Origin: an uncultured Chloroflexia bacterium
GTDB taxonomy: Bacteria; Chloroflexota; Limnocylindria; Limnocylindrales; CSP1-4
Assembly (NCBI GenBank): GCA_963716025.1
Contig: CAVQSY010000023.1
Location: 7,876 to 71,875, forward strand
Reading direction: 5' to 3'
DNA length: 64,000 bases
Shown: piece by piece, positions 1-38,330 of the stretch
Position numbering within the stretch: the stretch's first letter is position 1
How the letters are laid out: each line of letters starts with the position of its first letter
The notes under the pieces: generated by a model
Database searches by the model: none
Told to the model about the DNA's origin: nothing
The model's input: only the letters and a program-made list of their open reading frames with translations
Program-made: the position numbers and the translations under genes

Positions 1-183
1 GTTGGCCTCGCGCCTGCACCGGGTGCTTTTGGGAGACCGATGACCGTGATGGTACCCGCGGCAGAAAACAGCGAAATTGCCAGCCGATTGGCGGTCACAA
101 TATCCTGGGGCAATTCTTGTCAGCATGCCACGGGCTAGCCGCTAGAACGCAAGATTCCCTAGTGCTTTGTCACAATTGAAAAT

Positions 184-264
184 CAGGGTTGTTGCTATTA
201 GCCGTTTTGGCACAGCCACGGTTGCTCCGAGGAACCGTGGCAAGCACAAAACGGCTAATCCCTG
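184..264. repeat. Imperfect 81-bp hairpin/palindrome upstream of the MoxR gene
   Basis: Arms ATTAGCCGTTTTG..GCCACGGTT (197-223) and AACCGTGGC..CAAAACGGCTAAT (233-259) pair around a 9-nt loop. CAGGG (184-188) and CCCTG (260-264) extend the stem across a bulge. The motif AAACGGCTAAT recurs at 7767-7777. Confidence 0.6.
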
Positions 265-303
265 CTTTTGAGTTTGACAAAACGCTCGTGATGTAGAAAA
301 AGA

Positions 304-1262
304 ATGATGACTCCTCACGAATCCATTCTAAGCATCTCCGCCGCGATGAATGCGGCAGTCATCGGCCAGCAGACGGTGGTCGAGCGATTGCTGATCGCAT
401 TGTTGGCCGACGGCAACGTGCTGATGGAAGGCTTGCCCGGCACCGCCAAGACACGTTCGATCAAGACCCTGTCCGGACTGATCGAAGGCGTGAATTCGCC
501 GCGTTCAGTTCACGCCTGATCTGTTGCCCTCCGACGTGACCGGCTCGGAGATCTATCGCGAGCAGACCGCGACGTTCGAGTTCCAGCCAGGACCGCTATT
601 CGGCAATTTGGTGTTGGCCGACGAGATCAATCGGGCCCCGGCCAAAGTCCAGGCCGCGCTGCTCGAGGCGATGGAGGAACGGCAGGTGACGTGTTGCCGG
701 CAAGACGCACAAGTTACCGGACTTGTTTCTAGTTCTCGCGCCACGCAAAATCCAATCGAACAAGAGGGGACGTATCCGCTACCGGAGGCGCAGATGGATC
801 GATTCTTGGTATACGTCCAAGTGCCCTACCCGCTGCGGAGAATGAGCTCGCGATCCTGCGTCTGGTCCGCAGTGAAGAATCGGCAACCAGCGGCCAACCG
901 GAGCCGGTTTCGCAGCAGACGATCTTTGCCGCCCGCCGGGAAGATTGGGTCGATGCATGTCGCCGATGCCGAACGCTACCTTGTAGACCTGGTCATTGCC
1001 ACGCGGCATCCAAAGCGTTACGGGGATCTCGCCAAATGGATTCAGCTGGGCGCCACCGCGAGCCACGATTGCCTTAGACGCTCGCCGCACGGGCTCGCGC
1101 TGGCTACGGGGCAACGATTTTGTTTCGCCAGAAGACATACAAGCCGTCGCACCCGCTTGCTTGTCCCATCGCATTCACTTGTCCTACGAAGCCGAGGCCG
1201 CCGGAAGGACGCGCGAGGATGTCGTGGACGAGGTACTGCAACGCGTCGCGGTGACTGCATGA
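304..1262 (+). pseudogene. MoxR-family AAA+ ATPase, reading frame broken repeatedly (pseudogene or error-ridden sequence)
   Basis: Walker A GLPGTAKT lies in the 304 [55 protein letters not shown] and [20 protein letters not shown] lie in a second frame. [11 protein letters not shown] and the C-terminal [31 protein letters not shown] lie in other frames. I count at least 6 frame changes. Confidence 0.85.
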
Positions 1263-1270
1263 TTTCGGTA

Positions 1271-1435
1271 GCAGAGCTCGCGCAGCGTTTGGGTTGGTTT
1301 GTTGTTGCGGAACTCGCGTAGAGTTTCGGCTCTGGTTTGTTGTAGAGTTTCGGCTCTGAATCGAAAGTCTGCGCGACTTCCGCTACGATAATGCGCCTGG
1401 CCGAAAGTCTGCCGCAACTTCCGCTACGATAATGC
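1271..1435. repeat. Two adjacent short tandem-repeat arrays in the MoxR-DUF58 spacer
   Basis: A ~37-bp unit (GCrGArCTCGCGyAGnGTTTnGGnTnGGTTTGTTGT) is present about 2.4 times at 1271-1358. A ~34-bp unit (CGAAAGTCTGCnnnnACTTCCGCTACGATAATGC) is present twice, at 1362-1394 and 1402-1435. Confidence 0.7.
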
Positions 1436-1475
1436 AACGGGACGAGGTCTTTAATGCCCAGCACGACTGCCACTC

Positions 1476-2381
1476 GTGTTTACAGTACGCCTCGATGATC
1501 TGATCCGCTTCCGGAGCTCGGCACGTGGATTTTCGCTGCTTCCTCGGCAACCGATCAACAGTTTGCTCAGCGGCCAACATGTTTCTCGTCTACGTGGCCG
1601 TGGATTAATGTTCGAGGAACTTCGCGGCTACCGCCCTGGCGACGATATTCGCCAGATGGATTGGAAGGCGACGGTCCGCCATGCGAAACCGCAGGTTCGC
1701 GTCTATTCGGAAGAGCGAGAGCGACCGATATTGTTGGTCGTAGATCAACGGTCAACGATGTTTTTCGGTAGCCATCGTATGACCAAGGCGGTCGCGGCAG
1801 TCGAGGTCGCTGCTCTGGGAGCTTGGCGGGTCTGGACGCAGGTGATCGCGTGGGCAGCGATCTTATTCGACGATGAGGAAACCATGGAGATTCGTCCCTG
1901 CCGAAGTCGCGATAGCGTACTTCGGATCTGCACGAAATCGTGCGCATGAATAATCAATTGTCTGCCGAAAAGACTTTTGCCCATTCTGACAATCGCTTGA
2001 ACGACGCATTGCGGCGTGCCGTCCAGGTGGCCAACCACGATTACCTAGTCGTATTGATCACCGACTACCATGGCGACGATGCAGAGACTCGAGCTCTGGC
2101 CACTCGGCTCGCCGTACACAATGATGTGCTAGCTGTACTCGTCTACGATCCGCTGGGAATTCGACTGCCACAGGCGGGCGGACTCATGGCGACCGACGGT
2201 CACGCGCAATTGTCGATTCCAACGGGCGAGAGATTTGGGACACTGTTCGAGTCTGGAGTTTCAAAAACGCTGTGATCAATTGCGTGACAGGTGCGCACGA
2301 TCCGCATTCCGAATCTTACCAATTTGCACGCATGAGTCGGTGTTGGACCAAGTTCGTTCGGCATTGGGTGGCCAGCCATGA
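1476..2381 (+). pseudogene. DUF58 (MoxR-associated, VWA-like) protein, frameshifted
   Basis: LRGRGLMFEELRGYRPGDDIRQMDWKAT is the typical DUF58 signature. GDRVG and AILFDDEE sit in different frames near 1840. The 1940 ORF continues the protein. The tail ...ICTHESVLDQVRSALGGQP reaches a TGA that overlaps the next ATG (ATGA at 2378-2381). Confidence 0.8.
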
Positions 2382-2858
2382 ATGATGACCTAGCCAGCTT
2401 GGACAATTTGCGAGACATCGTCGAACCGCCTCCAGTTTCGTGGTGGCCCGCCTGCCCGGGCTGGTGGATGTTGCTCGCGATACTCGCCAGCGTAGCCTCG
2501 GTCATCATCTGGCGGCGCTGGCAAACATGGCGAGCCAATGCCTATCGGCGTGCCGCCCTGGCCGAACTCCGCTCGGCAGCCAACGCGCGTGCAATTGCGG
2601 AGATTTTGAAACGTGCGGCGCTGGTCGCCAACCCTCGCACGGAAATAGCTTCGAAAACGGGGCCAGCCTGGCTAAGTTGGTTAGAGAGCGAGGGAGGCCA
2701 ACCCCTGCCGCGTCACGTGGCGCTGATGATGACCGATGGAGTCTTCGGATGAATTTGCCCCAGCCAACATAGCTGATTTGACTAGCTTCGCCTCCGCTTG
2801 GATCAAACATCATCCCGATCGCCGTAAATCGGAAAAGCCCGAGGTGGTCGAGTGTTGA
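2378..2858 (+). CDS. Small single-TM protein of Bat operons (DUF4381-like), one frame change near 2748
   Basis: It has a TM helix (WWPACPGWWMLLAILASVASVIIWRRW) and sits in the conserved position between DUF58 and BatA. After the frame change the tail ...ADLTSFASAWIKHHPDRR ends at TGA 2856-2858, overlapping the TTG start of the next gene. Confidence 0.6.
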
Positions 2859-3891
2859 CTTTTGGCAATTCTTGGATGTTATTTCTGTCGCCATTGCCGC
2901 TGCTAGTCTGGTGGCTGTTGCCACCGCGAAGCGAAACGAATGTGGCCGTTCGCATTCCATTTTTCGACCGCGCAAGGCAGGCAAGCATTGCCAGCCCGCC
3001 AACGATCGAGCAACAGGGTTAAGAATCCCACTCTGGCTGCTCGATGGTTTGGTTGCTGATCGTGTTCGCACTGGCTCCGTCCCCAGTGGTTGGAAGAACC
3101 CATAGAAAAGTTGATTCCAACGCGCTGACCTGCTATTGGTCGTTGATCTGTCAGGTTCGATGGAACAGGAGGACTTTACCAACGCGCAAGGAGGTTCCGT
3201 TAGCCGTTTGGACGCTGTGAAAGAGGTTGTTGGCGATTTCCTGACGCGTCGCCAAGGAGATCGAGTTGGGCTGGTGGTGTTTGGCAATTCTCCGTTTTTA
3301 CAGGTTCCGTTTACGACGGACCTGGAGCTTTGTCGTCAATTGTTAGACCAAACCGCGGTCCGTATGGCCGGGCCCAAGACGGCGCTGGGCGATGCAATCG
3401 GTTTGGGAATCCATCTGTTCAACGACAGTGATGCCCCTACCAAAACACTGATTGCACTGACCGATGGAAATGACACTGCCAGTGCCGTTCCGCCGGTCGA
3501 AGCGGCACGTGTTGCCAGCGATCGTGGGATCACTATTCACACGGTGGCAATCGGGAATCCAGAGACGACCGGCGAGGAAAAATTGGACGAATCAACGTTG
3601 CGGTCGGTAGCCGAAGCGACCGGTGGACAATTCTTTTTGGCACTCGACCGACAGGAGCTGCAAGGAATTTATCAGCAGTTGGACGAGATTGAAACGCGTG
3701 ATGTGAAGACGGTCAGCCATCGACCGCGACGCGACTTGTATTATTGGCCACTCGCCGCAGCGCTATTGATTTCATTGGCTGCTCATAGTTGGCAGTGGTG
3801 GCGCATGCGGGGTCGAGTGCCAGTCCGCCGGAAGCAGACGCGATTGAAGGTCAATCCCAGAACCTTCGAGCTGGAGACGATCGAGTCATGA
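2855..3891 (+). pseudogene. batA: VWA-domain membrane protein, BatA-like, frameshifted in the N-terminal third
   Basis: It carries the MIDAS motif VVDLSGSM, then GDRVGLVVFG and LTDGNDTAS, and a C-terminal TM (YYWPLAAALLISLAA). The N-terminal TM segments (SWMLFLSPLPLLVWWLL and VWLLIVFALA) are spread over other frames. Confidence 0.75.
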
Positions 3892-3911
3892 ACGGAGACG
3901 ATCGAGTCATG
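3873..3911. repeat. 21-bp tandem duplication spanning the batA stop / batB start
   Basis: GGAGACGATCGAGTCATG occurs at 3873-3890 and again at 3894-3911, separated by AAC. The first copy holds the ATGA stop/start overlap (3888-3891). The second copy creates another in-frame ATG at 3909. Confidence 0.8.
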
Positions 3912-4840
3912 TACATTGTCGAGCAATTTCACTTCATTCGTCCGGCATGGTTGCTGATGATCCCCGTCGTCGTCTGGCTGTGGTGGCTCGGGAGACGCTG
4001 GCGCGATCCGACTCGGCGGCTGGCGGGTGCAATGGATCGCGAGTTGTTGGCGGCGCTCACAGTTGGCCAAACGTCAGCCAACCATTGGTTGTCGCTATCG
4101 CTGCTGGCCGCTTGGTTGTTAGCCTCGGTCTCGCTGGCTGGGCCAACATGGCATCTTGAGCCATCACCGTTTGCCGATGACCCAATCCCGTTGATGTTAT
4201 TGCTCCGCGCCGATGCTTCCATGGACCAAGATGATCTGTCACCCAGCCGCATAGAACGGGCGCGACTGAAAGTGGCGGATATCGCCGAGCTCCGCAAGGG
4301 ACAGCCGCTGGGACTGATCGCCTATGCAGGTTCGGCGCACCTCGGTGCTTCCTCCAACCCGTGAAACGTCGCTAGTTGCGACGATGGCATCGGAGATTAG
4401 CTCAGCCATTATGCCCAAGCTGGGGGACAAAGTTGTGGAGTGCTTCAACTCGCCCACAGAACGCTCGCCTCAACCGGCGGCTCGGTAATCGTAATTGCGG
4501 ACTCTATCGAGCAAGCGAACATTGGCGAACTAGAAAAATTTGGGCGTACAAGTCAGCTCGACGTCCAGTTCCTGACGGTGGCCCCGGCCAATACACACGA
4601 AGCGGAAAGTGTTGCGACAGCGGCAACGGCAATTCGCGGTCGCGTCAACATGCTTACTCCCGACGACGACGATGTTCGAGCACTCGTCCACCGCGCCGCC
4701 AACGCCCCTCGCTCTGTCGTCTCAGCCGAAAACGGCACACTCTGGGCCGAAGCCGGCTGGTGGCTCTTAGCTCCGCTGTCAGTGTTGTCACTGATCGGCT
4801 TTCGCCGCACTCGAACCAATGTAGAAAGCTCGCCCGGTGA
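3888..4840 (+). pseudogene. batB: VWA-like membrane protein, BatB-like, frameshifted
   Basis: It has an N-terminal TM (PAWLLMIPVVVWLWW), a VWA-like core (PLMLLLRADASMDQDDLSPSRIERARLKVADIAEL, GGSVIVIADSIE) and a C-terminal TM (GWWLLAPLSVLSLIGF). There are at least 3 frame changes. The end is placed at TGA 4838-4840, which overlaps a GTG. Confidence 0.6.
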
Positions 4841-5472
4841 ACTGTTCGACGATAACCAAGGCGCAAGCAGTGCGTCCGTTGCCTATTCGTCCCTTCTGGC
4901 CGTTGGAGTCCTCACTTGGTCGAGCCTTTGGTTCTCACCTGACCAGCAGGGGCAGCGATTGATGCGATCTGGCAACTTTCAGCAAGCTGCCGAAACGTTT
5001 GCCGACCCTATGCGTCAAGGAATCGCATGGTTCCGCGCGGGGGAGTTCAAAAAGGCCGATCAAAGCTTTGCCCGACTAACGACTGCCGATGCGCTCTACA
5101 ATCGAGGTAACGCTCGTATCATGCTTGGCCAATACGAATCGGCGACAAAATCGTTTGATCAGGCACTTAAAAAACGTCCTGATTTTGCGGACGCGAAGAC
5201 GAACCGAGATATCGCCATTGCCCGCGCAAAACTAACCAAATCTGAAGGTGGTGATATGGGCGACCAGGAAGCTCGGCGCTGACGAAATTCGCTTCGATAA
5301 ACAGAAATCGGGTGGCCAGGAGACGATTGTGGAGAAACAACAGGCAGTCTCCGACGCGACGATGCAGTCGCTGTGGCTTCGCCGTGTGCAGACGAAGCCC
5401 GCCGAATTCCTCAAGGCCAAGTTTGCTTATCAGCTCGCAACCCATGACGAGCAACCGGAGGCGAGTCAATGA
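4837..5472 (+). pseudogene. batC: TPR-repeat protein, BatC-like, frameshifted
   Basis: TPR-type repeats are present (IAWFRAGEFKKADQSF, ALYNRGNARIMLGQYESATKSFDQALKKRPDFADA). The C-terminal piece (KLGADEIRFDKQ...KPAEFLKAKFAYQL) is in another frame and ends in an ATGA overlap with batD. The start is approximate. Confidence 0.6.
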
Positions 5473-6853
5473 AGCCAAACTCTGAGCGGGAAAAAAATGT
5501 CAGATACCATTTGCCAGGAACTGGCCCTACGGGTGCTTTGTACAAATGGTATCTGACGCTTTTTTCCCGACTGTTTATTCTGTTCTTCTCCTGGTCACAA
5601 CTCTGGGGGCCGGCGGTCTGTCTCGCTGAGACAGAAATTGTTCGTGCGGAATTGAAACAAAAATCTGCTTGGACCGGTGAGGGAGTTTCGATGTCAGTCA
5701 CTCTCTATTCTCCTGGACCATTTAGCGGCACTCCATCATTCGACCTACCTCACTTGCCTACCACAGCCATTGTCAAATCGGCCGGTAGTCCGCTGATCGG
5801 AAACAAAACCATCGGAGACGACTCATGGTTTACGCAGCGCCATGAATTTAGCATCTACACACAACAGACTGGAGTCATTGTCATTCCTGCATTTCGCGTT
5901 CGCTTTGCTGGGAAAAAGTCGTTCACCGGCGACGCGGAACCCATGCAGGGTGAGTCGGCTGAGCTACGTTTCTCCTCGAAACGACCGCCCGGGAACCGAA
6001 CAGCTTGGAATGGTAGTCGCGGCCGGCGAGCATGGAAGTCTCACAGACATGGAAGCCCCAGGATCCTGAAACGGTCAACGCTGGCGACGTGATCGAGCGC
6101 AATATCATGCGCCGAGCGACCGAGACATCGGCTATGATGTTTGCTCCCATACAATTGTCCCCCATTGACGATGTGCGCATTTATCCAGGCGAACCGACTG
6201 TCCAGGATCATGAGCAGCGAGGGGCAGATACCGCGCAGCGGAAGGACACTTTCAAGTACCAGTTTGCGAAACCTGGACAATATGTGGTGCCCGATTTGTC
6301 GATTGTCTGGTGGGATACAACGGCAGAGAAGTTACAGCATGAAACTCTTGCTGGGGTTGCGATCACAGTCCACAACGCTCCCTTGTCTGCAGACGCTGCC
6401 GCCGAGCTAAGCCACAGATATAGGCGGGGATTGGTTGTATTAGTTGTACTGATAACTCTCGCGGTCTGGCTTACCCGTCGCCCGCTTCGCAGAATGGTAA
6501 CTCGCTGGTGGGCGTGGAGGCGCGAGCCGAGTCACTTGGCCGCGCGGCAACTGCTCGCCGCTTGTCGAATGCACGACGCCCCAGCCGCTTGTATGGCACT
6601 GACTGCATGGAAACAGACATCGGGGTTTGCTCGTGAAGATTCCTGCCGCGCCAAACATGTGTCCACCTCACTGGTGAACGAATTCCAAAAAGAATCGGCT
6701 GAGCTACTGCGGCGAGTCTACGGCGGGACACAATCGCAGGCTGCTTGGCGCGGCGACAGGCTGGCAGTCGCGTTTCATCGCATACAATCGGCAATGGTAG
6801 CCGACGTTGAAACACATGAAGCGACACGTAGTCTTCCACGGCTCAATCCATAG
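5469..6853 (+). pseudogene. batD: BatD-like secreted/membrane protein, two frame changes near 5990-6035
   Basis: It occupies the last position in the Bat operon. The signal-peptide-like RLFILFFSWSQLWGPAVCLA is followed by a beta-rich ectodomain and a C-terminal TM (GLVVLVVLITLAVWL). The protein continues across the 5469, 5842 and 6032 ORFs. Confidence 0.6.
5488..5568. repeat. 81-bp palindromic element embedded in the first codons of batD
   Basis: 26-nt arms GGGAAAAAAATGTCAGATACCATTTG (5488-5513) and CAAATGGTATCTGACGCTTTTTTCCC (5543-5568) match at 24 of 26 positions around a 29-nt loop. The length is exactly 27 codons. Confidence 0.8.
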
Positions 6854-7119
6854 CGACTACCTGCCGTACCGTGGAGAAAAGCATTGCTCCATTGCCGATA
6901 CCGGCGCGGTGGACTTCGAAAAGACTAGCAAATAGTGAGATTTTCAAAGGTAACATAGATTCCCGCATAGTGCGAACACAGGATTGTTTATGGCGGCGAC
7001 GATTGAAAGTTGCCCAGAATCGTGCTATAGTTCGCAAAGGAAGCTGAGTCGTAATCCGCTGTGCGGAGTGTGGCTGCGTGGGCACAATTGCAAATCTTTT
7101 CTAAAAAGCGAACTACACT

Positions 7120-7713
7120 ATGTCCACTGGCCCAGACTCTTCGGAGCCTTTGAGCAGCGACATCTCCATTCTGAATGCTATTGCGGGGAACTGGTGGATC
7201 CTCTTGGTGCGTGGCTTGTTACTTATCGTGCTCGGACTCTATGCGCCGTTCAACCCCGGACTCGCGCTCCTAGCTTGGGCCTTTATGATCGGCTGCTTTC
7301 TGATCGCAGATGGGTTGCTTGCGATTGTCGCGGGCATCGCTGGCTGGACTAAATCTCGAGGCTGGACGATTCTGCGCGGAGTGCTTGCCGTGGTGGCAGG
7401 GGCGTTTGCTGCCGGCCACCCGGCCCTATTCGGAGTTATCGCGGCGATGACCGTCGTCCTGCTGATCGCCGCTTGGTCGATCATCGGCGGGGTTTTCGAG
7501 ATCATCATCGCAGTTCGCGAGCGCAAGGCGATCCAGGGGGAGGGATGGATGATCCTCGACGGCATTTTCTCCATCCTCTTCGGCGTCGTGCTTGCATCCG
7601 CACCGTTGCTGTCCGGCGGCTTACTGATTCGTGTGAGCGGTGCGTTTGCAATTTTGTTTGGTTTTGTGGTAATCTTTTCGTCATTCAAGCTTCGCAAGCT
7701 CAAGCACGTCTGA
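7120..7713 (+). CDS. hdeD: HdeD-family (DUF308) acid-resistance-type membrane protein
   Basis: This is an intact 197-aa ORF with about six TM helices and the repeated DUF308 pattern (WWILLVRGLLLIVLGL, GWTILRGVLAVVAGAFA, WMILDGIFSILFGVVL). Confidence 0.75.
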   Translation: MSTGPDSSEPLSSDISILNAIAGNWWILLVRGLLLIVLGLYAPFNPGLALLAWAFMIGCFLIADGLLAIVAGIAGWTKSRGWTILRGVLAVVAGAFAAGHPALFGVIAAMTVVLLIAAWSIIGGVFEIIIAVRERKAIQGEGWMILDGIFSILFGVVLASAPLLSGGLLIRVSGAFAILFGFVVIFSSFKLRKLKHV

Positions 7714-7803
7714 TTAAGTGACCGCGCATAAGTTTTCAGCATTAAGAACAACCGTAGCAAACGCCGAAACGGCTAATGATGCGTAAAAATTTGTGCATGG
7801 AGT

Positions 7804-7976
7804 CTTAATTGGACAGCGCCACTTTGCGTGCAATGGTAACCCGAAGCGTAAGCGAGGAAAAGAGTTACGCAAAAAGCCTCGCTAACGCTTCGGGTTACCA
7901 TTGAAATCGCCGCATCCTGCTTTATGCAAACAACTTATGAATACTATTACGTAAAAAGTGGCGCTGTCCAATTAAG
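7804..7976. repeat. 173-bp composite nested palindrome (MITE-like or bidirectional terminator-like)
   Basis: The outer 22-nt arms are perfect: CTTAATTGGACAGCGCCACTTT (7804-7825) and its reverse complement (7955-7976). The inner 27-nt arms (7831-7857 and 7877-7903) match at 26 of 27 positions around a 19-nt loop. TTACGyAAAAAG recurs at 7865 and 7947. Confidence 0.8.
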
Positions 7977-7995
7977 TGATGAGGTTTAAAGAAGC

Positions 7996-8614
7996 ATGAG
8001 TACTGCCGAACGTCCCAACTTTGTCACAGAAGACGATTACTTAGCATCCGAGGAATTGGCGATAACAAAAAGCGAGTACATCGACGGATGGATCCGCGCG
8101 ATGGCGGGAGCGACCAATCGACACAATCGTGTGAAAATGAATTGCCTGTTGAACCTCGGGGTTGGATTGAAGAACAAGTCTTGTCAGCCATGGGATTCGG
8201 ACACCAAGGTTCGTATACGTGGTTTCGGTTATACTCGCTTTTACTATCCTGATGCACAGGTCGTCTGCGAGAGCAATGCACCGACAGACGTGTTCCAAGA
8301 CAAACCAGTGGTCATCATCGAAGTCTTGTCACCATCGACGCGGGCCTACGATTTGGATGAAAAGCTGAACGCCTATCTTAGGATTGCGTCGTTGCAATGT
8401 TATGTGATTCTTGAAAAGCACACACCGCTGGCAATTGTAATGCGACTGTACGCCGGCTGGGTTTCTGCGTGAGACCTACGAAGGCACTGATGCGACGATC
8501 GATCTGCCATCCATAGGTTGTGAGCTGCTACTTCGTGAGGTCTATAAGGGGGTTGAATTCACACCAACCTGCGTTCAAGAATCTGAACAAGAGTACGAGC
8601 GAACCACAGACTGA
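7996..8614 (+). CDS. Uma2-family (DUF820) PD-(D/E)XK endonuclease, one frame change near 8455
   Basis: EYIDG, YYPDAQVVCE and VVIIEVLSPSTRAYDLDEKLNAYLRI match the Uma2 catalytic pattern. After the shift the tail is ...RETYEGTDATIDLPSIGCELLLREVYKGV, ending at TGA 8612-8614. Confidence 0.75.
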
Positions 8615-8728
8615 TAGACTAATCCCAATAAAAGTGCTGTAACCGTTCACACGATAGAGAGATAGCGATGTTTACCTTGATGATATAGGACTTTATCCGT
8701 GCTCCGGCATTGCCATCCGTGCTAGTCC

Positions 8729-12179
<3,451 letters not shown>

Positions 12180-12182
12180 GGC

Positions 12183-13216
12183 GTGACCCCCGATCTGCGG
12201 ACCCGCTATCTGGGGCTCGATCTTCGGTCCCCGATCGTCGCGTCGTCCACGCCGCTCACCGGCGACCCGTCGTCGGCAAGCAGCTCGAGGACGCCGGCGT
12301 CGGGGCCGTCGTCCTGCCGTCGCTGTTCGAGGAGGAGATCCTCCACGACGAGATCGAGCTGTCGCGGGCCCTCGACCAGGGCACCGAGCAGTTCGCCGAG
12401 GCGCTGGACTACTTCCCGGCGTCAGGCCGAGTTCCAGGGCGTCGGCGACCGGTACCTCGCCCGGCTCGAGAAGACCAAGAAGGCGGTCTGCGATCCCGGT
12501 CGATCGCCAGCCTCAACGCCGACTCGACCGGCGGCTGGGTGCGCTACGCGCAGGCTGATGCAGGACGCCGGGGCCGACGCCCTGGAGTCTCAACCTGTAC
12601 CACGTGGCCGCGGACCCGCGAGCTCGGGTCGTCGCACCGCGAGCAGGCGGACCTCGACCTCGTGGCCGCGGTCCGCGCCGCGATCACGCATCCCGCTCGC
12701 CGTCAAGCTCAGCCCCTACTACTCGGCCATGGCGAACTTCGCCGGGCGGGTCGTCGAGGCCGGCGCCGACGGCCTCGTGCTGTTCAACCGCTTCTACCAG
12801 CCGGACCTCGACCTCGACACGTTCGACGTCGTCACCAAGGTCTCGCTGAGCCACCCCTCGGAGCTGCGGCTGCCGCTCCGGTGGATCGCCATCCTGCGGC
12901 CGCAGCTGGGCGTCGGGACGGGCCTCGCGGCCACGTCGGGCATCCACCGGGCACCGACGCCGTCAAGGCGCTCGCCGTCGGCGCGGACGTGGTGATGATG
13001 GCCTCGGCGATCCTGCGCCACGGCGCGGCCCAGGTCAGCACCCGTCGACCGGCGAGCTGCGTCGCCTGGATGGAGGAGCGCGAGTACGAGTCGGTCGCCC
13101 AGCTTCGTGGGTCCGCAACCGCGGCCACCGTCGCCAACCCGACGGCGTTCGAGCGGGCCAACTACCTCAAGACGCTCCACTCCTGGTCCGCACCGAGCGA
13201 GCTGGCCGGCGTCTAG
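12183..13216 (+). pseudogene. Dihydroorotate-dehydrogenase-like protein (PFOR-associated), heavily frameshifted
   Basis: There is a GTG start after GAAGGGAG. The fragments YLGLDLRSPIVASSTPLTGD, LEDAGVGAVVLPSLFEEEI, IPLAVKLSPYYSAMANFAGRVVEAGADGLVLFNRFYQPD and AVGADVVMMASAILRHG are spread over all three frames, with about 9 frame changes. Confidence 0.75.
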
Positions 13217-13232
13217 GCTCCTCGCAGCGGGT

Positions 13233-13275
13233 GGCGGGCGCGCGGCCTCCGGGCCGGCGCCCGCCTCGTCGTTTT
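13233..13275 (+). terminator. Rho-independent terminator after the PFOR/DHOD-like operon
   Basis: A GC-rich stem (GGCGGGCGC at 13233-13241 pairing with GCGCCCGCC at 13257-13265, plus inner GCGGCC/GGCCG pairing) is followed by TCGTCGTTTT. Confidence 0.6.
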
Positions 13276-13405
13276 CGACCCGACCCATCCGCCGCGCGCC
13301 ATGGGGCGAACAGGGCGCAGAGACCACAGCGTCTCGGATCGGTGCCCGGCGGCCTGACCGCCTGCGTCGTCATCCCGATCCCCCAGTCGCCAGGAGGAAC
13401 CTATC

Positions 13406-14038
13406 GTGGAATTCCGGAAGACGATCGCCGTCGTGCTGGCCGCCAGCGCCCTTGCCGCCGCGGTCGCCGCCCCGGTGGCAGCCGCCGACCCCAGCGTCGT
13501 CGACGTGCTCGCCGCAGACGGGCAGAAGTTCGACACCATGTGGAGCGACTACGACATCGTGGAGCGTGCGGCTCTCACCGTCCTCGCCGCCAAGCCCTCC
13601 AGCGCCGTCGGGGCGCTCGCCGACCCCACCGCGACGCTGACCGTGTTCGCACCCACCGATCGCGCCTTCCGGAAGCTCGTCCACGATCTGACCGGCGTGC
13701 GCCCGGCCACTGAGGCGCGGACGTTCAACAAGCTCGTCAAGGCCGTCGAGGGCCTGGTCGGGCCGAGGAACACGATCGATACGATCGAGGCCATCCTGCT
13801 GTACCACGTGGTGCCCGGCAACGTGCCGTCCTCTGCCGCGCTCGGGCTCGATGGCGCCAAGGTTGCGACCGCCAGCGGCGTCAAGTTCACGGTCAGGGTC
13901 GACACCAGCGTTCGGCTGGCCGACAAGGACCGCAACGCCCGCAACGCGCGGCTGGTCCTCGACCGCCTCGATATCGGCGCCGGCCTCAGCGTCATCCACA
14001 CGATCAACCGGGTCCTACGACCGATCGACCTCCCCTGA
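13406..14038 (+). CDS. Secreted fasciclin (FAS1) domain protein
   Basis: There is a GTG start after AGGAGG and a signal peptide (AVVLAASALAAAVAAPVAAA). FAS1-type motifs are present (LTVFAPTDRAF, ILLYHVVPG, VIHTINRVL). Confidence 0.8.
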   Translation: MEFRKTIAVVLAASALAAAVAAPVAAADPSVVDVLAADGQKFDTMWSDYDIVERAALTVLAAKPSSAVGALADPTATLTVFAPTDRAFRKLVHDLTGVRPATEARTFNKLVKAVEGLVGPRNTIDTIEAILLYHVVPGNVPSSAALGLDGAKVATASGVKFTVRVDTSVRLADKDRNARNARLVLDRLDIGAGLSVIHTINRVLRPIDLP

Positions 14039-14062
14039 CCCCAGTCCCATCCCCACGCCATC

Positions 14063-14094
14063 GGATCAGCCAGGCCTCACGGCCCGGCTGATCC
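14063..14094 (+). terminator. Stem-loop downstream of the fasciclin gene (possible terminator, no U-tract)
   Basis: GGATCAGCC (14063-14071) pairs with GGCTGATCC (14086-14094), with additional inner GGCC pairing. Confidence 0.35.
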
Positions 14095-14510
14095 GAATTC
14101 CGGGGACTCGACGGCGGCGCGGGCAGGCGTCTGCGTGCTGGTCCGCGTCCGAGACGTGGATGCGGGCCATCGCTTTGGGGCGCGGCCAATGGCAGGTGGC
14201 CGCTTCGTCGATTCGGGGCCCGTGATCCATGCCCGAGCCCTCCGGCCCGGACTCGGCGCCCAGCAACGGCAGCATGATCACCACCGGTGATCAATCACGA
14301 CTACGTGGCACCGGCGGCGCCCCGCCAGCGAACGTGGAACGTGCCTGGGCCGTCGTACCGGCCGATGTCAGCTCGATCATCACCACTCGTGATCGGCTTG
14401 GGCTGCTTCACCGGGTCGAGCCCGAGGGCAAGGCGACATCGATCAGGGTTGATGATCGGCCGGATGATCGAGTGGCCGGCGCGGGCGGTGACTCCGGGCC
14501 GGCTGTCCGA

Positions 14511-15359
14511 CTAGGTTCCCGAACGCCAGTCCGAGACCGTCGTGTCGAGGAAGCCGATCACGCTGCGGTAGTAGCGGCGGCGAGCATAGGGGTCGAGGAT
14601 CGCGGTCGCTCCCGGGGTCCGCACCGACGTGAACTGGAAGTCGAAGTCCCGCGTCCGGCTCGGGTCGGTCCAGAACAGCTGCGAGAGGGTCGTCGCGCCA
14701 GCAGCATCGAACAGCCCGTTGATCACGTATTTCACGCTCGTGATGCCGCTCGCGTAGACCGCCTTCGCCCCTGCTCTCAGGAAGCCGCGACCGTAGTTGT
14801 CGACCCGCTTGATGGCCGTCGACTTCTTCGGGTTGCCGGCACCCCACTCATTGTTGCCGGATGCGTAGCACAGACGGTTCAGGACGACGACCGCGTTCCT
14901 GGCCAGGTCGAGCTTCGCCATGTACGACTCACCGTAGTACCGCAGGTTCGAGTTGCCGTGACGTGCGCTCCGGTTGAGGCCGAACCCGTCCTTCGAGTCG
15001 GCCGAGAACGGGGCGTACGGGCTGGGCCAGCCATTGCCGTGACCGAGGTAGATGAGGAGGCTCGCACCCTCGGCGGCGTTGCGAACGCGCTTCCAGGTAG
15101 CCCTTGGGCTGTAGACCTTCTTCACGTTGGCGCCGTAGCTGCGAGCCAGGTCGGCGAGCTTGTTGGCACCGGACTTGTAGTCCCGGGTGGCACTGCCCAC
15201 GGGACCGACCACGATCACCACCTTGGCGGTCGCCGCCCGGGTCTCGGGGGCCGTGGCGGCCGCCGCCGTCACGAGGACCAGCGCGGCGAGGAGGGCGCTG
15301 GCGAGGGATCGAACCGTTCTGGCGGACGCCCGTTGGGCGCCATTCCGTTGCTGGGGCAA
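14511..15359 (-). CDS. Secreted hypothetical protein with a possible gingipain/caspase-like (clan CD) His-Cys pattern
   Basis: The ORF extends to 15470, but a TTG at 15359 is preceded by GGAGG and followed by a signal peptide (SLASALLAALVLVTAAAATA). Candidate catalytic motifs are LLIYLGHGNGWPSPY and, about 55 residues later, VVVLNRLCYASGNNEW. Confidence 0.55.
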   Translation of the reverse strand: MPQQRNGAQRASARTVRSLASALLAALVLVTAAAATAPETRAATAKVVIVVGPVGSATRDYKSGANKLADLARSYGANVKKVYSPRATWKRVRNAAEGASLLIYLGHGNGWPSPYAPFSADSKDGFGLNRSARHGNSNLRYYGESYMAKLDLARNAVVVLNRLCYASGNNEWGAGNPKKSTAIKRVDNYGRGFLRAGAKAVYASGITSVKYVINGLFDAAGATTLSQLFWTDPSRTRDFDFQFTSVRTPGATAILDPYARRRYYRSVIGFLDTTVSDWRSGT

Positions 15360-31812: not shown

Positions 31813-32010
31813 ATGGTCATGACAACCACGCCGACGTTCCGATTCCCCCTCGAGATCGGGCCGATGCTGTTCGCGGACTGCCCGTTCTGCCTTCGGCCGC
31901 TGCCGTTCGATGCCGTGGCCGGATCCATGGACTGCCCCGATTGCGGTGTCCACCTCGAGCTCGGTCTGCAGCGGGACCGCGGACCGGAGACGCTGGCGCC
32001 CGCGGCCTGA
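31813..32010 (+). CDS. Small (65-aa) zinc-ribbon-like protein
   Basis: MVMTTTPTFRFPLEIGPMLFADCPFCLRPLPFDAVAGSMDCPDCGVHLELG contains paired CPxC motifs 16 residues apart. Confidence 0.4.
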   Translation: MVMTTTPTFRFPLEIGPMLFADCPFCLRPLPFDAVAGSMDCPDCGVHLELGLQRDRGPETLAPAA

Positions 32011-32160
32011 GGCGCCATGTGCAGGGGTGCACGTGGCGCGCCGCGTGCCCATCCGGTTTGACCCAGCGCGCGGAGCGTGCCTATTGTGGCGCGGGCAGCG
32101 GGGAGAACCTGCCCAACGGGATGTCCGGACGCGGCCGCCGGCGTCGAGGAGAGGAGCACC

Positions 32161-34116
32161 ATGCGCGCACCCGTCCGTCAACGCATTCTTCGCCTGTTCG
32201 CAGCGCTGGCCATGACTGCCGTGCTGCTGATGCCCTCGATGGCCGGACCCGCGAAGGCAGCCGATCCGCTCGTGCTGCGCGTGGGCACGACCCAGGACCT
32301 CGATTCGCTCAACCCGTACACCACGATCCTCGTGTCCGGCTACGAGGTCTACCAGCTCACCTACAACCTGCTCGTGGACTTCGGGCCCAACCTCGAGCCC
32401 GTCCCCGGGTTCGCGGACAAGTGGGAGCGTTCCGCCGACGGGACCTCGTGGACCTTCCATATCCGGGAGGGCATGAAGTGGTCTGACGGCGAGCCGGCAA
32501 CCGCCCAGGACGCCTGCTTCTCGTGGGGCCTCAACCTCGACGCCAACAACGCGGACGACTACGTCGGCGAGGGCTACATCAACCCGGGCCTCGCCGATGC
32601 CCAGGTCACGGCGATCGAGTGCCCGGACGACCAGACGATGATCGTCTCCACGGTCGACGCGTCGGACCGGGTCCTCCAGACCTACATCCCGATCATCCCG
32701 AAGCACATCTGGGGAGACACCGACTACTCGGCGATGGGTGACGCCAAGTTCGACACGCCCCTGGTCGGGACTGGTCCGTATCACGCCGTCGAGTGGCAGA
32801 CGAGCCAGTTCGTGCGGTTCGAGCGCAACCCCAACTACTGGGGCACGCAGGGCGCGGCTGACGAGGTCGTCATCCAGTTCTTCAAGAACGACGACACGAT
32901 GATCCAGGCCCTCAAGGCCGGCGAGCTCGACTATGCGCGCAACCCCAACTCGGACCAGCTCAATGCCCTCGCGTCCGAGCCCAACATCAAGACGGTCGTG
33001 GGCGCGTCCAACGGCTGGACCCAGCTCGCGTTCAACACCTACGGCACCGGCACCGGCAACACCATCAAGAAGGGCGGACCGTCCACGGAGGCGCTCCTCG
33101 ACCCCGCCTTCCGCGACGCTCTCGGCTACGCCATTGACAAGGATGTCCTGGTCGACCGGATCCTTGGCGGCTACGGCGACCCGGGAAACACGATCGTGCC
33201 GCCGGTCCTGGGCAAGTGGCATGTTGACCCCACGACTCCCCGGTCGTTCAACATCGACCTTGCCAAGCAGAAGCTCGACGCGGCCGGATACCCCCTCGAC
33301 GGGAGCACCCGCCTCGACAAGCAGGGCAAGCCGATCAGCCTGCGGCTGTACTACCCCAACACGGATTCGAGCTACGACAAGACCGCCCAGTTCGTGAAGG
33401 ACTGGTACGGGCAGCTGGGCATCAAGGTCTCCACGCAGCCGTACGACTCCTCGACCCTGGCGGACATCGTCCTGCCGCCGGAGGCGTGCCCCAAGAGGGA
33501 CCCGAACTGCCCCGAGTACCGGGCCGACTACGACATCGAGCTGTGGGGCTGGGCCTGGGGGCCGGATCCCAACGGCATGACGCAGATCTTCCGGTGCGAC
33601 TACATCGGCAGCTCGTCGGACAGCCAGTACTGCAACCCCGAGTACGACAAGCTGTATGACCAGCAGGCCACCGCGACGTCGGACGACGAGCGCCAGGCCA
33701 TCCTCGCCGAGATGCAGAACCTGATCTACGACGAGGCGCCATACGACGTCCTGTTCTACGACTCGGCCCTGGCCGCGTATCGCACGGACAAGTTCGCCGG
33801 CTGGCAGAACCAGCCGATCGACAACGGGACGCCGCTGTTCACCTACGGCACGCTCCAGTACACGATGCTGACCGATGCGACCAAGGTGGCGGAGACCCCG
33901 TCGCCGGCGGCCGAGAGCCTGGCACCCGGTGTCACCGCAGCGCCGACGTCGGCGACCGCGACGGCGTCACCGGGCTCGGACGATGGCTCGACGACGGGCG
34001 GCGGAGACAACAGCGCCCTGATCATCGGCGCCATCGTGGTCGTCGTGGTCGTGGTGGTCGCCGGGCTGGTGATGGCCCGTCGACGATCCGCCGGCCAGGC
34101 GGAAGAAGAGGAGTAG
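32161..34116 (+). CDS. ABC peptide/nickel substrate-binding protein (family 5, DppA/OppA-like) with a C-terminal TM anchor
   Basis: The ATG follows GGAGAGGAG. It has a signal peptide without a lipobox Cys and an SBP_bac_5-type core (LRVGTTQDLDSLNPY, FHIREGMKWSDGEP). The tail is ALIIGAIVVVVVVVVAGLVMARRR. Confidence 0.85.
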   Translation: MRAPVRQRILRLFAALAMTAVLLMPSMAGPAKAADPLVLRVGTTQDLDSLNPYTTILVSGYEVYQLTYNLLVDFGPNLEPVPGFADKWERSADGTSWTFHIREGMKWSDGEPATAQDACFSWGLNLDANNADDYVGEGYINPGLADAQVTAIECPDDQTMIVSTVDASDRVLQTYIPIIPKHIWGDTDYSAMGDAKFDTPLVGTGPYHAVEWQTSQFVRFERNPNYWGTQGAADEVVIQFFKNDDTMIQALKAGELDYARNPNSDQLNALASEPNIKTVVGASNGWTQLAFNTYGTGTGNTIKKGGPSTEALLDPAFRDALGYAIDKDVLVDRILGGYGDPGNTIVPPVLGKWHVDPTTPRSFNIDLAKQKLDAAGYPLDGSTRLDKQGKPISLRLYYPNTDSSYDKTAQFVKDWYGQLGIKVSTQPYDSSTLADIVLPPEACPKRDPNCPEYRADYDIELWGWAWGPDPNGMTQIFRCDYIGSSSDSQYCNPEYDKLYDQQATATSDDERQAILAEMQNLIYDEAPYDVLFYDSALAAYRTDKFAGWQNQPIDNGTPLFTYGTLQYTMLTDATKVAETPSPAAESLAPGVTAAPTSATATASPGSDDGSTTGGGDNSALIIGAIVVVVVVVVAGLVMARRRSAGQAEEEE

Positions 34117-34151
34117 CCCCCACTCCCCGCCTCCGCTCGGGTTGACCGCGG

Positions 34152-35171
34152 GTGAACGCCCGGTACCTGGTCAGGCAGTCGCTGCAGGCGATCTTCACGA
34201 TCGCCATGATCGTGCTGCTCAACTTCATCCTGTTCCGGATGATGCCGGGTTCACCCGACCGGGTGAACCCGCGGAACCCGAACATCACGCCCGAGCAGCG
34301 GGAGGCGGCGAAGGCCCGCTGGGGGCTGGACAAGCCGCTGCTCCCGGTTGGGTTTTCCGTGGATCCACCCGCCGTTGAGCTGAACGGCGACAACCAGCTG
34401 TTCGCCTTCATCGGCTCAACGCTCCAGGGCGACCTTGGCTACTCCATCAAGTTCCAGGGACAGGAGGTGACCAAGGTCATCGGCGACCGATTCTGGCCGA
34501 CGATCATGCTCATCGGCCTCGCCGAGATGATCGCGATCGTCTTCGGCCTGGGCCTCGGTGCCTACACGGGATGGCGGAGAGGAGGGGTGGCCGACCGGAT
34601 CGGCAACGGTGCGAGCCTGATCCTGTACTCGATGCCGTACTTCGTGATCGGCATGCCGCTGATCATCATCTTCGCCGCCGGATTGCACTGGCTGCCGACC
34701 TCCGGGATGCTCACCGCGGGAGCCACCTATGCCGGACCGGTGGAGTTCCTGGCGGACCTGCTGCCGCACCTCGTGCTGCCGCTGGCCACCATCAGCCTTG
34801 GCCTCATCGGCGGCTACTCCATCCTGATGCGCTCGTCGATCACCGAGACGCGTGCCGAGGACTACATCGGAACGGCACGGGCGAAGGGCCTGACGGACGG
34901 CAAGATCCTTCGCTCGCATGCCCTGCCCAACGCGATGCTCCCCGCCGTCACCCTGATCGCGATCAACCTCGGATATGTCGTGGGCGGGGCGATCACGGCC
35001 GAGATCGTGTTCAACTGGCCAGGCCTCGGCACGCTCACCGTTGATGCCCTCGGGTCCCGTGACTACCCGGTCATCCAGGGTGTGTTCCTGTTCCTGAGCG
35101 TATCCGTGGTGCTCGCCAACTTCGTGGCCGACATCATCTACGGCTTCCTTGACCCGAGGGTACGACGATGA
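34152..35171 (+). CDS. ABC peptide transporter permease (DppB/OppB-like)
   Basis: This is an intact 339-aa ORF of the BPD_transp_1 type with an N-terminal DppB-like segment (YLVRQSLQAIFTIAMIVLLNFILFRMMPG). Confidence 0.85.
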   Translation: MNARYLVRQSLQAIFTIAMIVLLNFILFRMMPGSPDRVNPRNPNITPEQREAAKARWGLDKPLLPVGFSVDPPAVELNGDNQLFAFIGSTLQGDLGYSIKFQGQEVTKVIGDRFWPTIMLIGLAEMIAIVFGLGLGAYTGWRRGGVADRIGNGASLILYSMPYFVIGMPLIIIFAAGLHWLPTSGMLTAGATYAGPVEFLADLLPHLVLPLATISLGLIGGYSILMRSSITETRAEDYIGTARAKGLTDGKILRSHALPNAMLPAVTLIAINLGYVVGGAITAEIVFNWPGLGTLTVDALGSRDYPVIQGVFLFLSVSVVLANFVADIIYGFLDPRVRR

Positions 35172-36118
35172 CCGCCGGCACCGTCGCCACGCCCAACCTG
35201 CGCAACGAGCGCTGGCGGCTTCGCCTGCGCAACGCGCGTGAGTTCGGGCGGCGCTTTGCCGGTCGGAGCGACGGCGTGGTGGGCCTGGCACTGCTCCTGT
35301 TCTTCGCGTTCCTCGCGCTGGCCCCGGACCTCCTGGTGGGCCCCCTGCAGACCGTCACGACCGCGACGGGAAGCTCCCTTGAGCCGCCCTCGGGCGCGCA
35401 CCTCCTGGGCACGGACGAGTCAGGCCGGGACCTGCTCAACATGACCATTCACGGGGCCCGCATCTCGATGGTGATCGGGCTCATGGCGACCGCGATCACG
35501 ATCATCCTGGGCGCGGTCATCGGCATCGTGTCGGGCTACGTCGGCGGACGCTGGGACCAGTTCCTGATGCGCATCACCGACTTCTTCCTGGTTCTGCCGA
35601 CATTCGTGCTGGCGATCGTGCTGGCCCCGCTCATCCTCGACCTGATCGGCGTCGACGCCGAGTTCTTCGGGATCCGGGCGACCCTGCTCGTCATCGTGGT
35701 CGTGATCGGCGTCACCAGCTGGGCCTCGACGGCGCGGATCATCCGGTCACAGGCGCTCTCTGTCCGGGAGCGGATGTTCGTCGACCGGGCCCGCGTGATC
35801 GGCGGCAGCAGCGGGCACATCATGCGCCGGCACATCCTGCCCAACGTGCTCAACCTCATCGTGGCCAACACGGTTCTCACGTTCGCCGCCGCCGTGTTCA
35901 CGGAGACCACCCTGTCCTTCATCGGCCTCGGCGATCCGTCCTCGCCGTCCTGGGGACAGCTCCTCAACGCGGCCCAGGAGTCGGGGGCTCCGGGCCTCGG
36001 GGCATGGTGGTACATCGTGCCGCCGGCGGTCTGCGTGGTCGCCGTGATCCTTGCCTTCACCCTGGTGGGCAACGCCCTGGACGACGTCCTCAACCCGAAA
36101 GCCGGCCTCAAGCGATGA
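35168..36118 (+). CDS. ABC peptide transporter permease (DppC/OppC-like)
   Basis: This intact 316-aa ORF overlaps the neighbouring genes by 4 nt. It carries GTDESGRDLL and an EAA-like loop (SQALSVRERMFVDRARVIG). Confidence 0.85.
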   Translation: MTAGTVATPNLRNERWRLRLRNAREFGRRFAGRSDGVVGLALLLFFAFLALAPDLLVGPLQTVTTATGSSLEPPSGAHLLGTDESGRDLLNMTIHGARISMVIGLMATAITIILGAVIGIVSGYVGGRWDQFLMRITDFFLVLPTFVLAIVLAPLILDLIGVDAEFFGIRATLLVIVVVIGVTSWASTARIIRSQALSVRERMFVDRARVIGGSSGHIMRRHILPNVLNLIVANTVLTFAAAVFTETTLSFIGLGDPSSPSWGQLLNAAQESGAPGLGAWWYIVPPAVCVVAVILAFTLVGNALDDVLNPKAGLKR

Positions 36119-37221
36119 CACCGCACTCCGAGCCTGACGTGCCGGCCCCGGGCATGGACCGCGCCGCCATTCGCGGGCGACGCCAGTGGCCGCTGCCCAA
36201 GCAGGCCGATCCAGACGCCCCGCTCCTTGTCGTGGAAGGGCTCTCGACGCACTTCCGCCTGGGCAATGCGACCGTTCATGCAGTCGACGACGTCAGCTTC
36301 ACGCTCGACGACGGCGAAGCGCTCGGTATCGCCGGCGAGTCAGGGTGCGGCAAGACGACGACGGCCCTGTCGCTCCTGCGGCTCCTGCCGAGCAACGCCA
36401 AGGTGGTCTCGGGGAGCGTCCGCCTGTTCGGGATCGATCTCGCCCAGAAGAGCGAGACCGCCCTCCGCCGTTACCGGTGGCGCGAGATCTCGGTCATCTT
36501 CCAGGGCGCCATGAACGCGCTCAACCCCGTCCAGCGGGTGGGCGACCAGATCGCCGAGCCGATCGTGGAACGCCTTGGCATGGCCCGGCCCGCGGCGGCG
36601 AAGCGCGCGCGCGAGCTCCTGGAGCTGGTCGGGATCCCGAAGGCCCGCGCACGCGCCTACCCCCACGAGCTCTCGGGCGGCATGCGCCAGCGCGCGATGA
36701 TCGCGATGGCCCTCGCCTGCGACCCGGCCGTGATCATCGGTGACGAGCCGACCACGGCGCTCGACGTGATGGTCCAGGCACAGATCCTCGAGCTGCTCGA
36801 GGACCTTCGGGAGAAGCTTGGCCTGTCGATGATCCTGATCACCCACGACCTGTCGGTGCTCGCCGAGACCTGCGACCGGGTGATGATCATGTACGCGGGG
36901 CGGGTGGCCGAGGAGGGCCCGGTCGGCACGATCTTCGCGACGCCCCGCCACCCGTACACGCAGATGCTCCTGCGGGCCTTTCCCGATGTGAAGGCCGGCC
37001 GGCGCGACCTGGGGACGATCCCCGGCTCGCCGCCGGACCTGCGCACGCCACCTCCGGGCTGCCGGTTCGCGCCGCGCTGCCCCGCCGCGATGGACGTCTG
37101 CCGGACGGAGGTTCCGCCGGAGGTCCGCTTCGAGGACAGGGTCCGTGTCGCCTGCCACCTCTACCCGCCGGGCGACGGCGGGACACCTCGCGTGCTCCCG
37201 GTCGTCGAGGCCGCGTCGTGA
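36115..37221 (+). CDS. ABC peptide transporter ATP-binding protein (DppD/OppD-like)
   Basis: An ATGA overlap joins it to the permease stop. [24 protein letters not shown] and [11 protein letters not shown] are present, with an oligopeptide C-terminal CRFAPRCP motif. Confidence 0.9.
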
Positions 37222-38330
37222 GCGAGCAGCCGGTGCCCGACGGCCAGGCGCCCGGCGGCGAGGCGCTCATTCGGCTCGAGGGGCTGGAGGTCCACTTCCC
37301 GATCCACGGAGGTCTGCGCGACCTGATCCGGCGCAAGCCGGCGGGCTATGTGCGGGCCGTCGACGGGATCGATCTCGAGCTCCGGCGGGGCGAGGTCCTC
37401 GGCCTCGTCGGAGAGTCCGGGAGCGGCAAGACGACCGCGGGCCGCGTGATCGTCAAGCTCACCCATCCGACCGGTGGACGCATCCTGCTCGAGGGCGAAG
37501 ACGTCACCGACACCTGGGGCGGCGAGGCGCTGCGCGCCTACCGGCGACGTGTCCAGCTGATCTTCCAGGACCCATACGAGACCCTGAACCCCAAGCAGAC
37601 GATCCATGACTTCGTGGCCGAGCCGCTCGAGGTCCAGAACCTCGGCCTGAGCGCCGCGGAGCGCGAGAAGCGGGTCCTCGAGGCCATCGATGCCGCAGGG
37701 CTGCGACCCGCCACGGACTTCGCATTCCGCTATCCGCACGAGCTGTCGGGCGGCCAGCGTCAGCGCGTCGTGATCGCCGGCGCACTCGTCCTCGACCCCA
37801 AGATCGTCGTCGCCGACGAGCCGGTCAGCATGCTCGATGTCTCGATCCGGACCGAGATCCTCAACCTGATGCTGGATCTTCGGCGGCAGCGCGACCTCAC
37901 CTACCTGTTCATCACCCATGACCTCTCGGTGGCCTGGGTCATCGCGGACCGGATCGCCGTCATGTACCTCGGCAAGATCATGGAGATCGGACCGGCCGAG
38001 GACGTCATCCACGATCCGCGGCACCCGTACACGCGGGCCCTCGTCTCCGTCATGCCCACGCCCGAACCCCCGGAGCCCGGTCTCCGGGCGCGCCGGGTGA
38101 TCCTCGAGGGCGAGACCCCGGATGCCGCACACATCCCGACCGGCTGTCGATTCCACCCGCGCTGCCCGCTCGCCGAGCAGGCCGGGATCATCGAGCGCTG
38201 CCGGACGGAGGAGCCGCCCCTGATCGAGGTCGGCGATGGCCGGGCCGCCGCGTGCTGGCTCGCGGAGTCCGGGCAGCCGCTGCCCGCGGTCGTGCGGCGC
38301 GAGGCCGCGGAGGAGCAGGGGCCCACGTAG
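37218..38330 (+). CDS. ABC peptide transporter ATP-binding protein (DppF/OppF-like)
   Basis: [35 protein letters not shown] and CRFHPRCP are present. Confidence 0.9.

Follow-up and report, generated by a model that had tools for sequence, protein, structure and literature searches.

A composition switch within a pyruvate:ferredoxin oxidoreductase gene of an uncultured Chloroflexia contig probably marks an inter-phylum assembly chimera

[quoted passage not shown] The authors of the catalogue report that its MAGs of lower coverage contain Nanopore-associated errors and that microdiversity is high in some of the soils (PMC12313526). The relatives of the window, as we term the whole 64,000-nt stretch of DNA analysed here, belong to this catalogue, including the locus designated L005, which is identical to the window at the breakpoint described below. 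The contig from which the window derives was itself most likely assembled from Nanopore reads with Flye plus Medaka. The second point of reference is the single-polypeptide pyruvate:ferredoxin oxidoreductase (PFOR), represented by PDB entries 6CIN and 1B0P. The window contains a PFOR remnant that is homologous lengthwise to these 1171–1232-aa enzymes; unlike them, it lacks residues 1–66 together with the start codon and changes frame more than 10 times.

In our opinion, the junction at 8727/8728, which cuts this gene, would best be explained as a mis-join in a long-read metagenome contig, at a place where the contig is poorly supported, and not as a cellular structure. Judging from sequence comparisons, we give this reading a probability of roughly 85%. 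The principal features of the window are the following:

1–8644, plus strand: Pirellulaceae-like Planctomycetota block, 55% GC (homology and composition)
8645–8727, no strand: orphan of 83 nt, 47% GC, between the last left homology and the first right identity
8727/8728, no strand: breakpoint of the inter-phylum join (alignment starts of the relatives; identity to L005)
8728–12186, plus strand: PFOR (NifJ/YdbK-type) remnant, residues 67 to ~1218 (PDB alignment, tblastn, translation)
9760–13050, plus strand: tract with many indels and mixed ancestry, which takes in the remainder of PFOR together with DHOdh (private indels, informative sites)
12183–13210: DHOdh gene, frameshifted
13051–14570, no strand: second L005-like stretch, with a fasciclin-domain gene and an intergenic region (identity to L005)
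13358–14035: fasciclin-domain gene (Fasciclin Pfam match)
14571–64000, no strand: main body, Limnocylindrales (Chloroflexota) genome, ~71% GC (synteny, taxon names, block identities, Pfam)

The first line of evidence is compositional. Per-kb GC runs at 52–59% across 1–8 kb and at 66–74% across 9–64 kb (block values of 55% on the left and ~71% on the right), with the step at 8.70–8.73 kb; a two-state maximum likelihood model places the change point at 8696–8726. GC3 of verified genes is 0.55–0.70 in the left block and 0.88–0.96 in the right. When GC-normalised tetranucleotide profiles are compared, 8.6-kb chunks of the right block correlate with the rest of that block at r = 0.913 ± 0.024; the corresponding value for 1–8644 against the right block is r = 0.41, which lies ~20 SD from the right-block values. 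An earlier sequence-only reading of this DNA had proposed an abrupt switch of composition and codon usage at ~8.7 kb, and GC, GC3 and the change point all confirm it. The same reading had recommended the comparison of GC3 and tetranucleotide profiles between the halves, which clearly differ by both measures.

The left block carries the following genes:

304–1256, plus strand: MoxR
1491–2378, plus strand: DUF58
2378–2746, plus strand: DUF4381
2852–3885, plus strand: BatA
3927–4643, plus strand: BatB
4893–5442, plus strand: BatC/TPR
5625–6850, plus strand: BatD
7120–7713, plus strand: DUF308/HdeD, intact
7996–8614, plus strand: Uma2, frameshifted by one extra T at ~8447

The DUF308 protein is 72–74% identical to its counterparts in Rosistilla spp. 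and 95% identical to one ENA protein. The named relatives of the BatA-like protein come mostly from Pirellulaceae, Rubripirellula, Rhodopirellula and similar planctomycetes, and the tetranucleotide profile of the block scores 0.80–0.87 against Pirellulaceae references. Protein relatives and tetranucleotide profile thus bear out the planctomycete-type character ascribed to this half from sequence alone, and specify it as Pirellulaceae-like. Moreover, a contig assembled independently with MEGAHIT from a different ENA sample (L001) matches window positions 6437–8638 at 94.6% nucleotide identity and carries, in order, DUF308, an intact 205-aa Uma2 gene and a sulfatase gene. Because of this identity to an ordinary Pirellulaceae-type contig and because of its Pirellulaceae composition, the left block cannot be regarded as ameliorated.

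The coding sequences of the left block are extensively damaged. With respect to an intact Pirellulaceae-type operon (L086), MoxR, DUF58, BatA, BatC and BatD change frame, with at least 10 switches in 6.5 kb, and the extra T relative to L001 breaks the frame of Uma2; the Bat operon and Uma2 together account for at least 11 frameshifts in 1–8.6 kb. The Rosistilla DUF308 locus (L085) was dropped as a reference for the Bat operon, as it is not syntenic, and L086 was taken instead. It should also be mentioned that nested inverted repeats occupy 7804–7976, between DUF308 and Uma2: inner arms of 27 nt at 7831–7857 and 7877–7903, with 96% complementarity, are enclosed by 35-nt arms with 83% complementarity. 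At least the 3′ part of this region, from 7900 onwards, is kept in L001, and the repeats may serve as a terminator in the Planctomycetota fragment or belong to a REP-like element there.

The second line of evidence is the precision with which the relatives delimit the join. Homology to L001 stops at ~8644, at the point where L001 enters its sulfatase gene. On the other side, the alignments of six independent Limnocylindrales relatives (L003, L004, L005, L039, L044 and L071) each start at 8728 or 8729. The closest of them, L005 (MFD09964.bin.2.77), equals the window base for base over 8728–9195 (468 nt) and is unrelated to it upstream of 8728. The intervening orphan, 8645–8727, matches neither the continuation of L001 (sulfatase) nor any PFOR relative, and no second copy of it was found in the window or in L001–L004, where only chance matches of 9–14 nt occur. 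Its 47% GC is ordinary for the left block and lies below that of every 83-nt segment of the right block (55 kb; minimum 53% GC); for this reason, the orphan probably comes from an intergenic region of the Planctomycetota fragment that is specific to its strain, and the join is accordingly placed at 8727/8728. The AT-rich stub at 8615–8692, in which the two blocks had been thought to meet, therefore gives way to a different partition, namely left homology to ~8644, the orphan at 8645–8727, and right identity from 8728.

Several other features of the orphan were considered and set aside. The ONT, PacBio and Illumina adapter sequences compared with it align over 5–12 nt only. The 9-bp direct repeat ATCCGTGCT, present at 8695–8703 and 8716–8724, is too short to mean anything, and the repeat search was silent there. 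A possible extension of the PFOR homology into the orphan (‘AGTCCG’ after a 9-nt gap), which would move the break to ~8720, is indistinguishable from chance. The adjacent sequence did not reveal the same junction elsewhere: no exact match was found for the left-adjacent 61-mer (8633–8693) among GTDB representatives, nor for a 27-mer of the orphan or the right-adjacent 60-mer in JGI metagenomes, an absence that constitutes weak evidence.

The right block belongs to the Chloroflexota. The best 80 genome loci for its lineage-specific product P0121 are Chloroflexota MAGs, with the exception of one bin labelled Saccharimonadales, and these Chloroflexota loci are either Candidatus Limnocylindrales or ‘uncultured Chloroflexia’ MFD bins. 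Thus, the description of this half as GC-rich and of actinobacterial type holds for its GC and GC3, which are high, and fails for its taxonomy, which the P0121 loci place in the Limnocylindrales. When the halves are placed separately, as had been advised, they do fall in different phyla, the left in Planctomycetota and the right in Chloroflexota rather than Actinobacteria. Synteny with L003 and L004 extends over 8.7–25 kb, in the order PFOR, DHOdh, P0121, an ABC transporter, tRNA_edit, a DEAD-box helicase, a gene of the beta-lactamase family and a GreA-like gene. In the syntenic region, the main body is about equidistant (84–90%) from L005 and L003. Elsewhere in the right block the genes are of ordinary housekeeping and transport types, most of them intact and with full-length Pfam matches; among them are an oligopeptide ABC operon, peptidase S15, an MFS transporter, MoaA and acetyl-CoA synthetase. 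The oligopeptide ABC transporter operon at 32000–38300 consists of SBP_bac_5, two BPD_transp_1 permeases and two ABC_tran+oligo_HPY ATPases, and GC is somewhat lower there (66–68% over 32–36 kb).

Isolated private frameshifts occur in the right block at ~16379, ~17172, ~23570 and ~24592, where they affect conserved genes (two ABC ATPases, one DUF2705 permease and one ABC-2 permease), all of which are intact in the relatives. The frameshifts point to a background indel error of ~0.5 per kb across the contig. A relative has a split gene of its own, at positions 38–615 of L003, where Adenine_glyco is called in two pieces of 148 and 44 aa, which suggests that long-read assemblies of this kind generally retain some indel errors.

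The gene cut by the join is readily recognised. The PFOR frame opens at 8726 (SAAGAVHG...), directly behind an in-frame TAG, and the first 358 aa of the remnant align in the PDB comparison with E = 2.5e-130. The start of the remnant corresponds to residue 65 of Moorella PFOR (6CIN), to residue 66 of the D. africanus enzyme and to residue 67 of intact 1218-aa orthologues. The sequence-only reading had recognised PFOR only from about residue 60–70 and had concluded that the start codon, some 60 N-terminal codons and the promoter are missing; the alignments agree on both counts, with ~64–66 N-terminal codons absent in addition to the start codon and promoter. Its description of the gene as beheaded is correct as far as the N-terminus is concerned. 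This is not the sole damage, as many frameshifts are present as well, also in DHOdh and in most left-block genes. The first 1 kb of the remnant, 8728–9759, is clean and L005-like, and frameshifts are abundant from 9760; tblastn with the intact PFORs of L003 and L004 passes through frames 2, 3, 2, 1, 2 and 3 along the remnant, which retains ~90% aa identity to the L003 enzyme. Given the missing N-terminus and start codon and the more than 10 frame changes, PFOR as written cannot encode a functional enzyme. In L003, L004 and L005, PFOR and the genes upstream of it were checked and are intact (called genes upstream were seen in L003 and L004), and L005 carries an intact 1218-aa PFOR together with a 341-aa DHOdh. 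The identity to L005 over 8728–9195 means that any truncation must be extremely recent or artificial.

A very recent real transfer, in which a Pirellulaceae MoxR–Bat–DUF308–Uma2 segment was inserted in PFOR, with deletion of the 5′ end and decay of the broken genes, would account for the presence of the junction in the deposited contig, and insertional inactivation could explain why the adjoining PFOR and DHOdh are non-functional as written. We nevertheless regard such a transfer as very unlikely. The close identity of the left block to an ordinary Pirellulaceae-type contig, its unameliorated composition, and the 468 nt that the PFOR remnant shares without a difference with a relative that has the intact gene all argue against it. 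The border, moreover, bears no signature of mobility: no integrase or transposase lies near it (DUF308 and Uma2 flank it to the left, PFOR to the right), ARAGORN found no tRNA or tmRNA in the whole 64 kb, and the repeat search of the window returned no repeats bracketing the border and no target-site repeat. The tRNA scan, repeat search and neighbouring genes thus agree with the earlier statement that no integrase, transposase, tRNA or att-like repeat marks the border. Were the junction nevertheless real, illegitimate recombination into PFOR would very recently have given a member of the Limnocylindrales a piece of Pirellulaceae chromosome of 8.7 kb or more, with no mobile element involved and amelioration still to come, a sequence of events that we consider barely credible.

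The third line of evidence comes from the DNA immediately downstream of the clean PFOR segment. Private indels were defined as non-triplet indels found only in the window, at alignment columns without disagreement among the six relatives, and are distributed as follows:

8728–9759: 0
9760–13050: 21–25
13.7–25.3 kb: ~0.5 per kb

The tract 9760–13050 thus holds private indels at ~10 times the background. They are 1–2 nt long and mostly outside homopolymers, with 17 insertions and 8 deletions. Nucleotide identity of the tract to L003 (88%) is not below that of neighbouring regions, and private substitutions amount to 1.4–2.0%, compared with 0.9%. Natural pseudogene decay of PFOR and DHOdh is contradicted by the bias towards insertions and by the small rise in substitutions; because insertions outnumber deletions, identity is undiminished and substitutions are barely increased, the pattern looks technical in origin. 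The same insertion bias without a matching substitution excess speaks against the decay that a real transfer would entail, as do the sporadic frameshifts in conserved genes elsewhere on the contig, which sequencing error predicts.

The indel-rich tract is also of mixed ancestry, as can be seen from the closest relative of successive segments:

8728–9227: L005, 100%
9228 to ~10.5 kb: L005, 91–98%
~10.5–13.0 kb: L039/L044 clade, 90–97%, with L005 down to 81–92%
13.4–14.5 kb: L005, mostly 91–100% (one 100-nt stretch at 84%)
from ~14.57 kb, inside the P0121 gene: identity to L005 of 80–87%

Among the sites that separate L005 from L039 and L044, the window is L005-like at 41 of 41 beside the join. 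In the middle of the tract the two states are finely interleaved, and at 12.5–13.0 kb 74 of 84 sites are L039/L044-like. Further on, 200 of 200 nt at 13.8–14.0 kb are identical to L005, and identity is 96–98% at 14.3–14.5 kb. Besides the main body of the contig, at least three sources contribute to the mosaic of the first ~14.6 kb. A consensus of reads from two related populations, or of very few reads, would fit the interleaved tract with its many indels; the interleaving of L005-like and L039-like sites could also reflect a third, intermediate lineage rather than a mixed consensus. That the indel island coincides with mixed ancestry is a further point against real transfer. Two details of the adjoining DNA deserve mention. 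A second seam is seen at ~14570, in the 3′ end of the P0121 gene (14511–15359, minus strand), where identity to L005 drops from 96–100% to 80–87%; this seam could mark another switch in the assembly or the edge of a natural recombination event. In addition, ~110 nt of intergenic DNA at 14204–14312 is missing from L005, the flanks being 96–100% identical to it.

It can be argued that the inter-phylum join is an artefact and that the mosaic of 8.7–14.6 kb arose by natural homologous recombination among soil populations, with sequencing noise superimposed. Blocks 95–100% identical to L005 do stand beside DNA of ~85% identity, with a sharp edge at ~14.57 kb, as in recent recombination imports, and PFOR is conserved enough for recombination. 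The L039-like tract, however, is finely interleaved and not block-like, and it coincides exactly with the 10-fold excess of private indels, for which a collapsed or low-coverage consensus is a better fit. We therefore consider a natural origin of the mosaic improbable.

The public record bears on the remaining possibility, that the two sides were brought together after assembly, through concatenation (deliberate or accidental, as in a synthetic window or in scaffolding) or through an error of binning. The extreme sharpness of the switch and the want of any linking feature would be in keeping with this. The exact products P0242 (DUF308) and P0243 (BatA-like) of the left block and P0121 of the right block, however, are each recorded in NCBI and ENA on a single contig of 178,810 bp, and the identical length makes it by far likeliest that this is one shared contig. 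The presence of products of both sides on a 178,810-bp contig disfavours deliberate concatenation, which the sequence-only reading had offered as an option and which we find very unlikely; the window contains no N run either. Its other option, a binning chimera, is excluded because binning groups whole contigs and the join sits inside one. Post-assembly joining as a whole is left with a very low probability.

Taken together, these observations favour an artefactual join over recent horizontal transfer, the preference already voiced in the sequence-only reading: native contexts, indels, mosaic ancestry and the lack of a mobile-element signature agree. The closest relatives of the two sides are in unrelated taxa, Pirellulaceae and Limnocylindrales; each side continues, in independent assemblies, into another and intact native context; and the consensus near the join is degraded or mixed, as evidenced by the frameshifts on the left, the private indels and the mosaic ancestry. 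In the mis-join model, a Pirellulaceae fragment, 1–8727, would have been attached to Limnocylindrales DNA at a point within PFOR; the join could have arisen in a chimeric read or when the assembler took a wrong path through its graph. For the following ~6 kb, sequences of two or more co-occurring Limnocylindrales populations, one resembling L005 and another resembling L039/L044, would have been pieced together or averaged, before the contig settles into the main genome at ~14.57 kb. The order would thus be Pirellulaceae fragment, L005-like PFOR, mixed L039-like tract, L005-like DNA and main genome, and the many 1–2-nt indels would stem from support by reads that were few or of mixed origin. 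The junction itself presumably lacks support from reads.

Two observations count against this model, namely that the 1 kb beside the join (8728–9759) is clean, so that the indel island stands apart from the breakpoint, and that the join carries none of the adapter sequences compared with it. For the former reason, and because the noisy tract is of mixed ancestry, a single noisy chimeric read spanning 1–13 kb fits only partly.

The switch is most likely a flag of data quality, i.e., of contamination or misassembly, and does not signify a new biological system. The deposited MAG contig of 178.8 kb appears to hold ~8.7 kb of another phylum followed by ~6 kb of indel-laden sequence from mixed populations, and users of the contig should trim or mask about the first 14.6 kb of the window. 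The uses at risk include calls of PFOR and DHOdh presence or absence, pseudogene counts, HGT screens and analyses of taxonomic markers. More generally, inter-phylum ‘HGT’ calls from long-read soil MAGs require read-level validation.

Compared with genomic islands, the window shows the same arrangement of a block of foreign composition adjoining a disrupted host gene. It differs from them in that the border has no integrase, transposase, tRNA or direct repeat; that the genes carried form a MoxR/Bat operon of housekeeping type, broken by many frameshifts; that the left block runs to the start of the window, with no second boundary within it; and that the disrupted PFOR matches an intact orthologue without a difference as far as the breakpoint. 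Like inter-genome chimeric contigs, considered here with the workflow of PMC12313526, the window exhibits an abrupt taxonomic and compositional switch with a gene cut mid-codon, native contexts that are intact elsewhere, a local drop in consensus quality and a mixture of close populations. It departs from such contigs in that its join is free of a mid-read adapter and is flanked by 1 kb of clean sequence.
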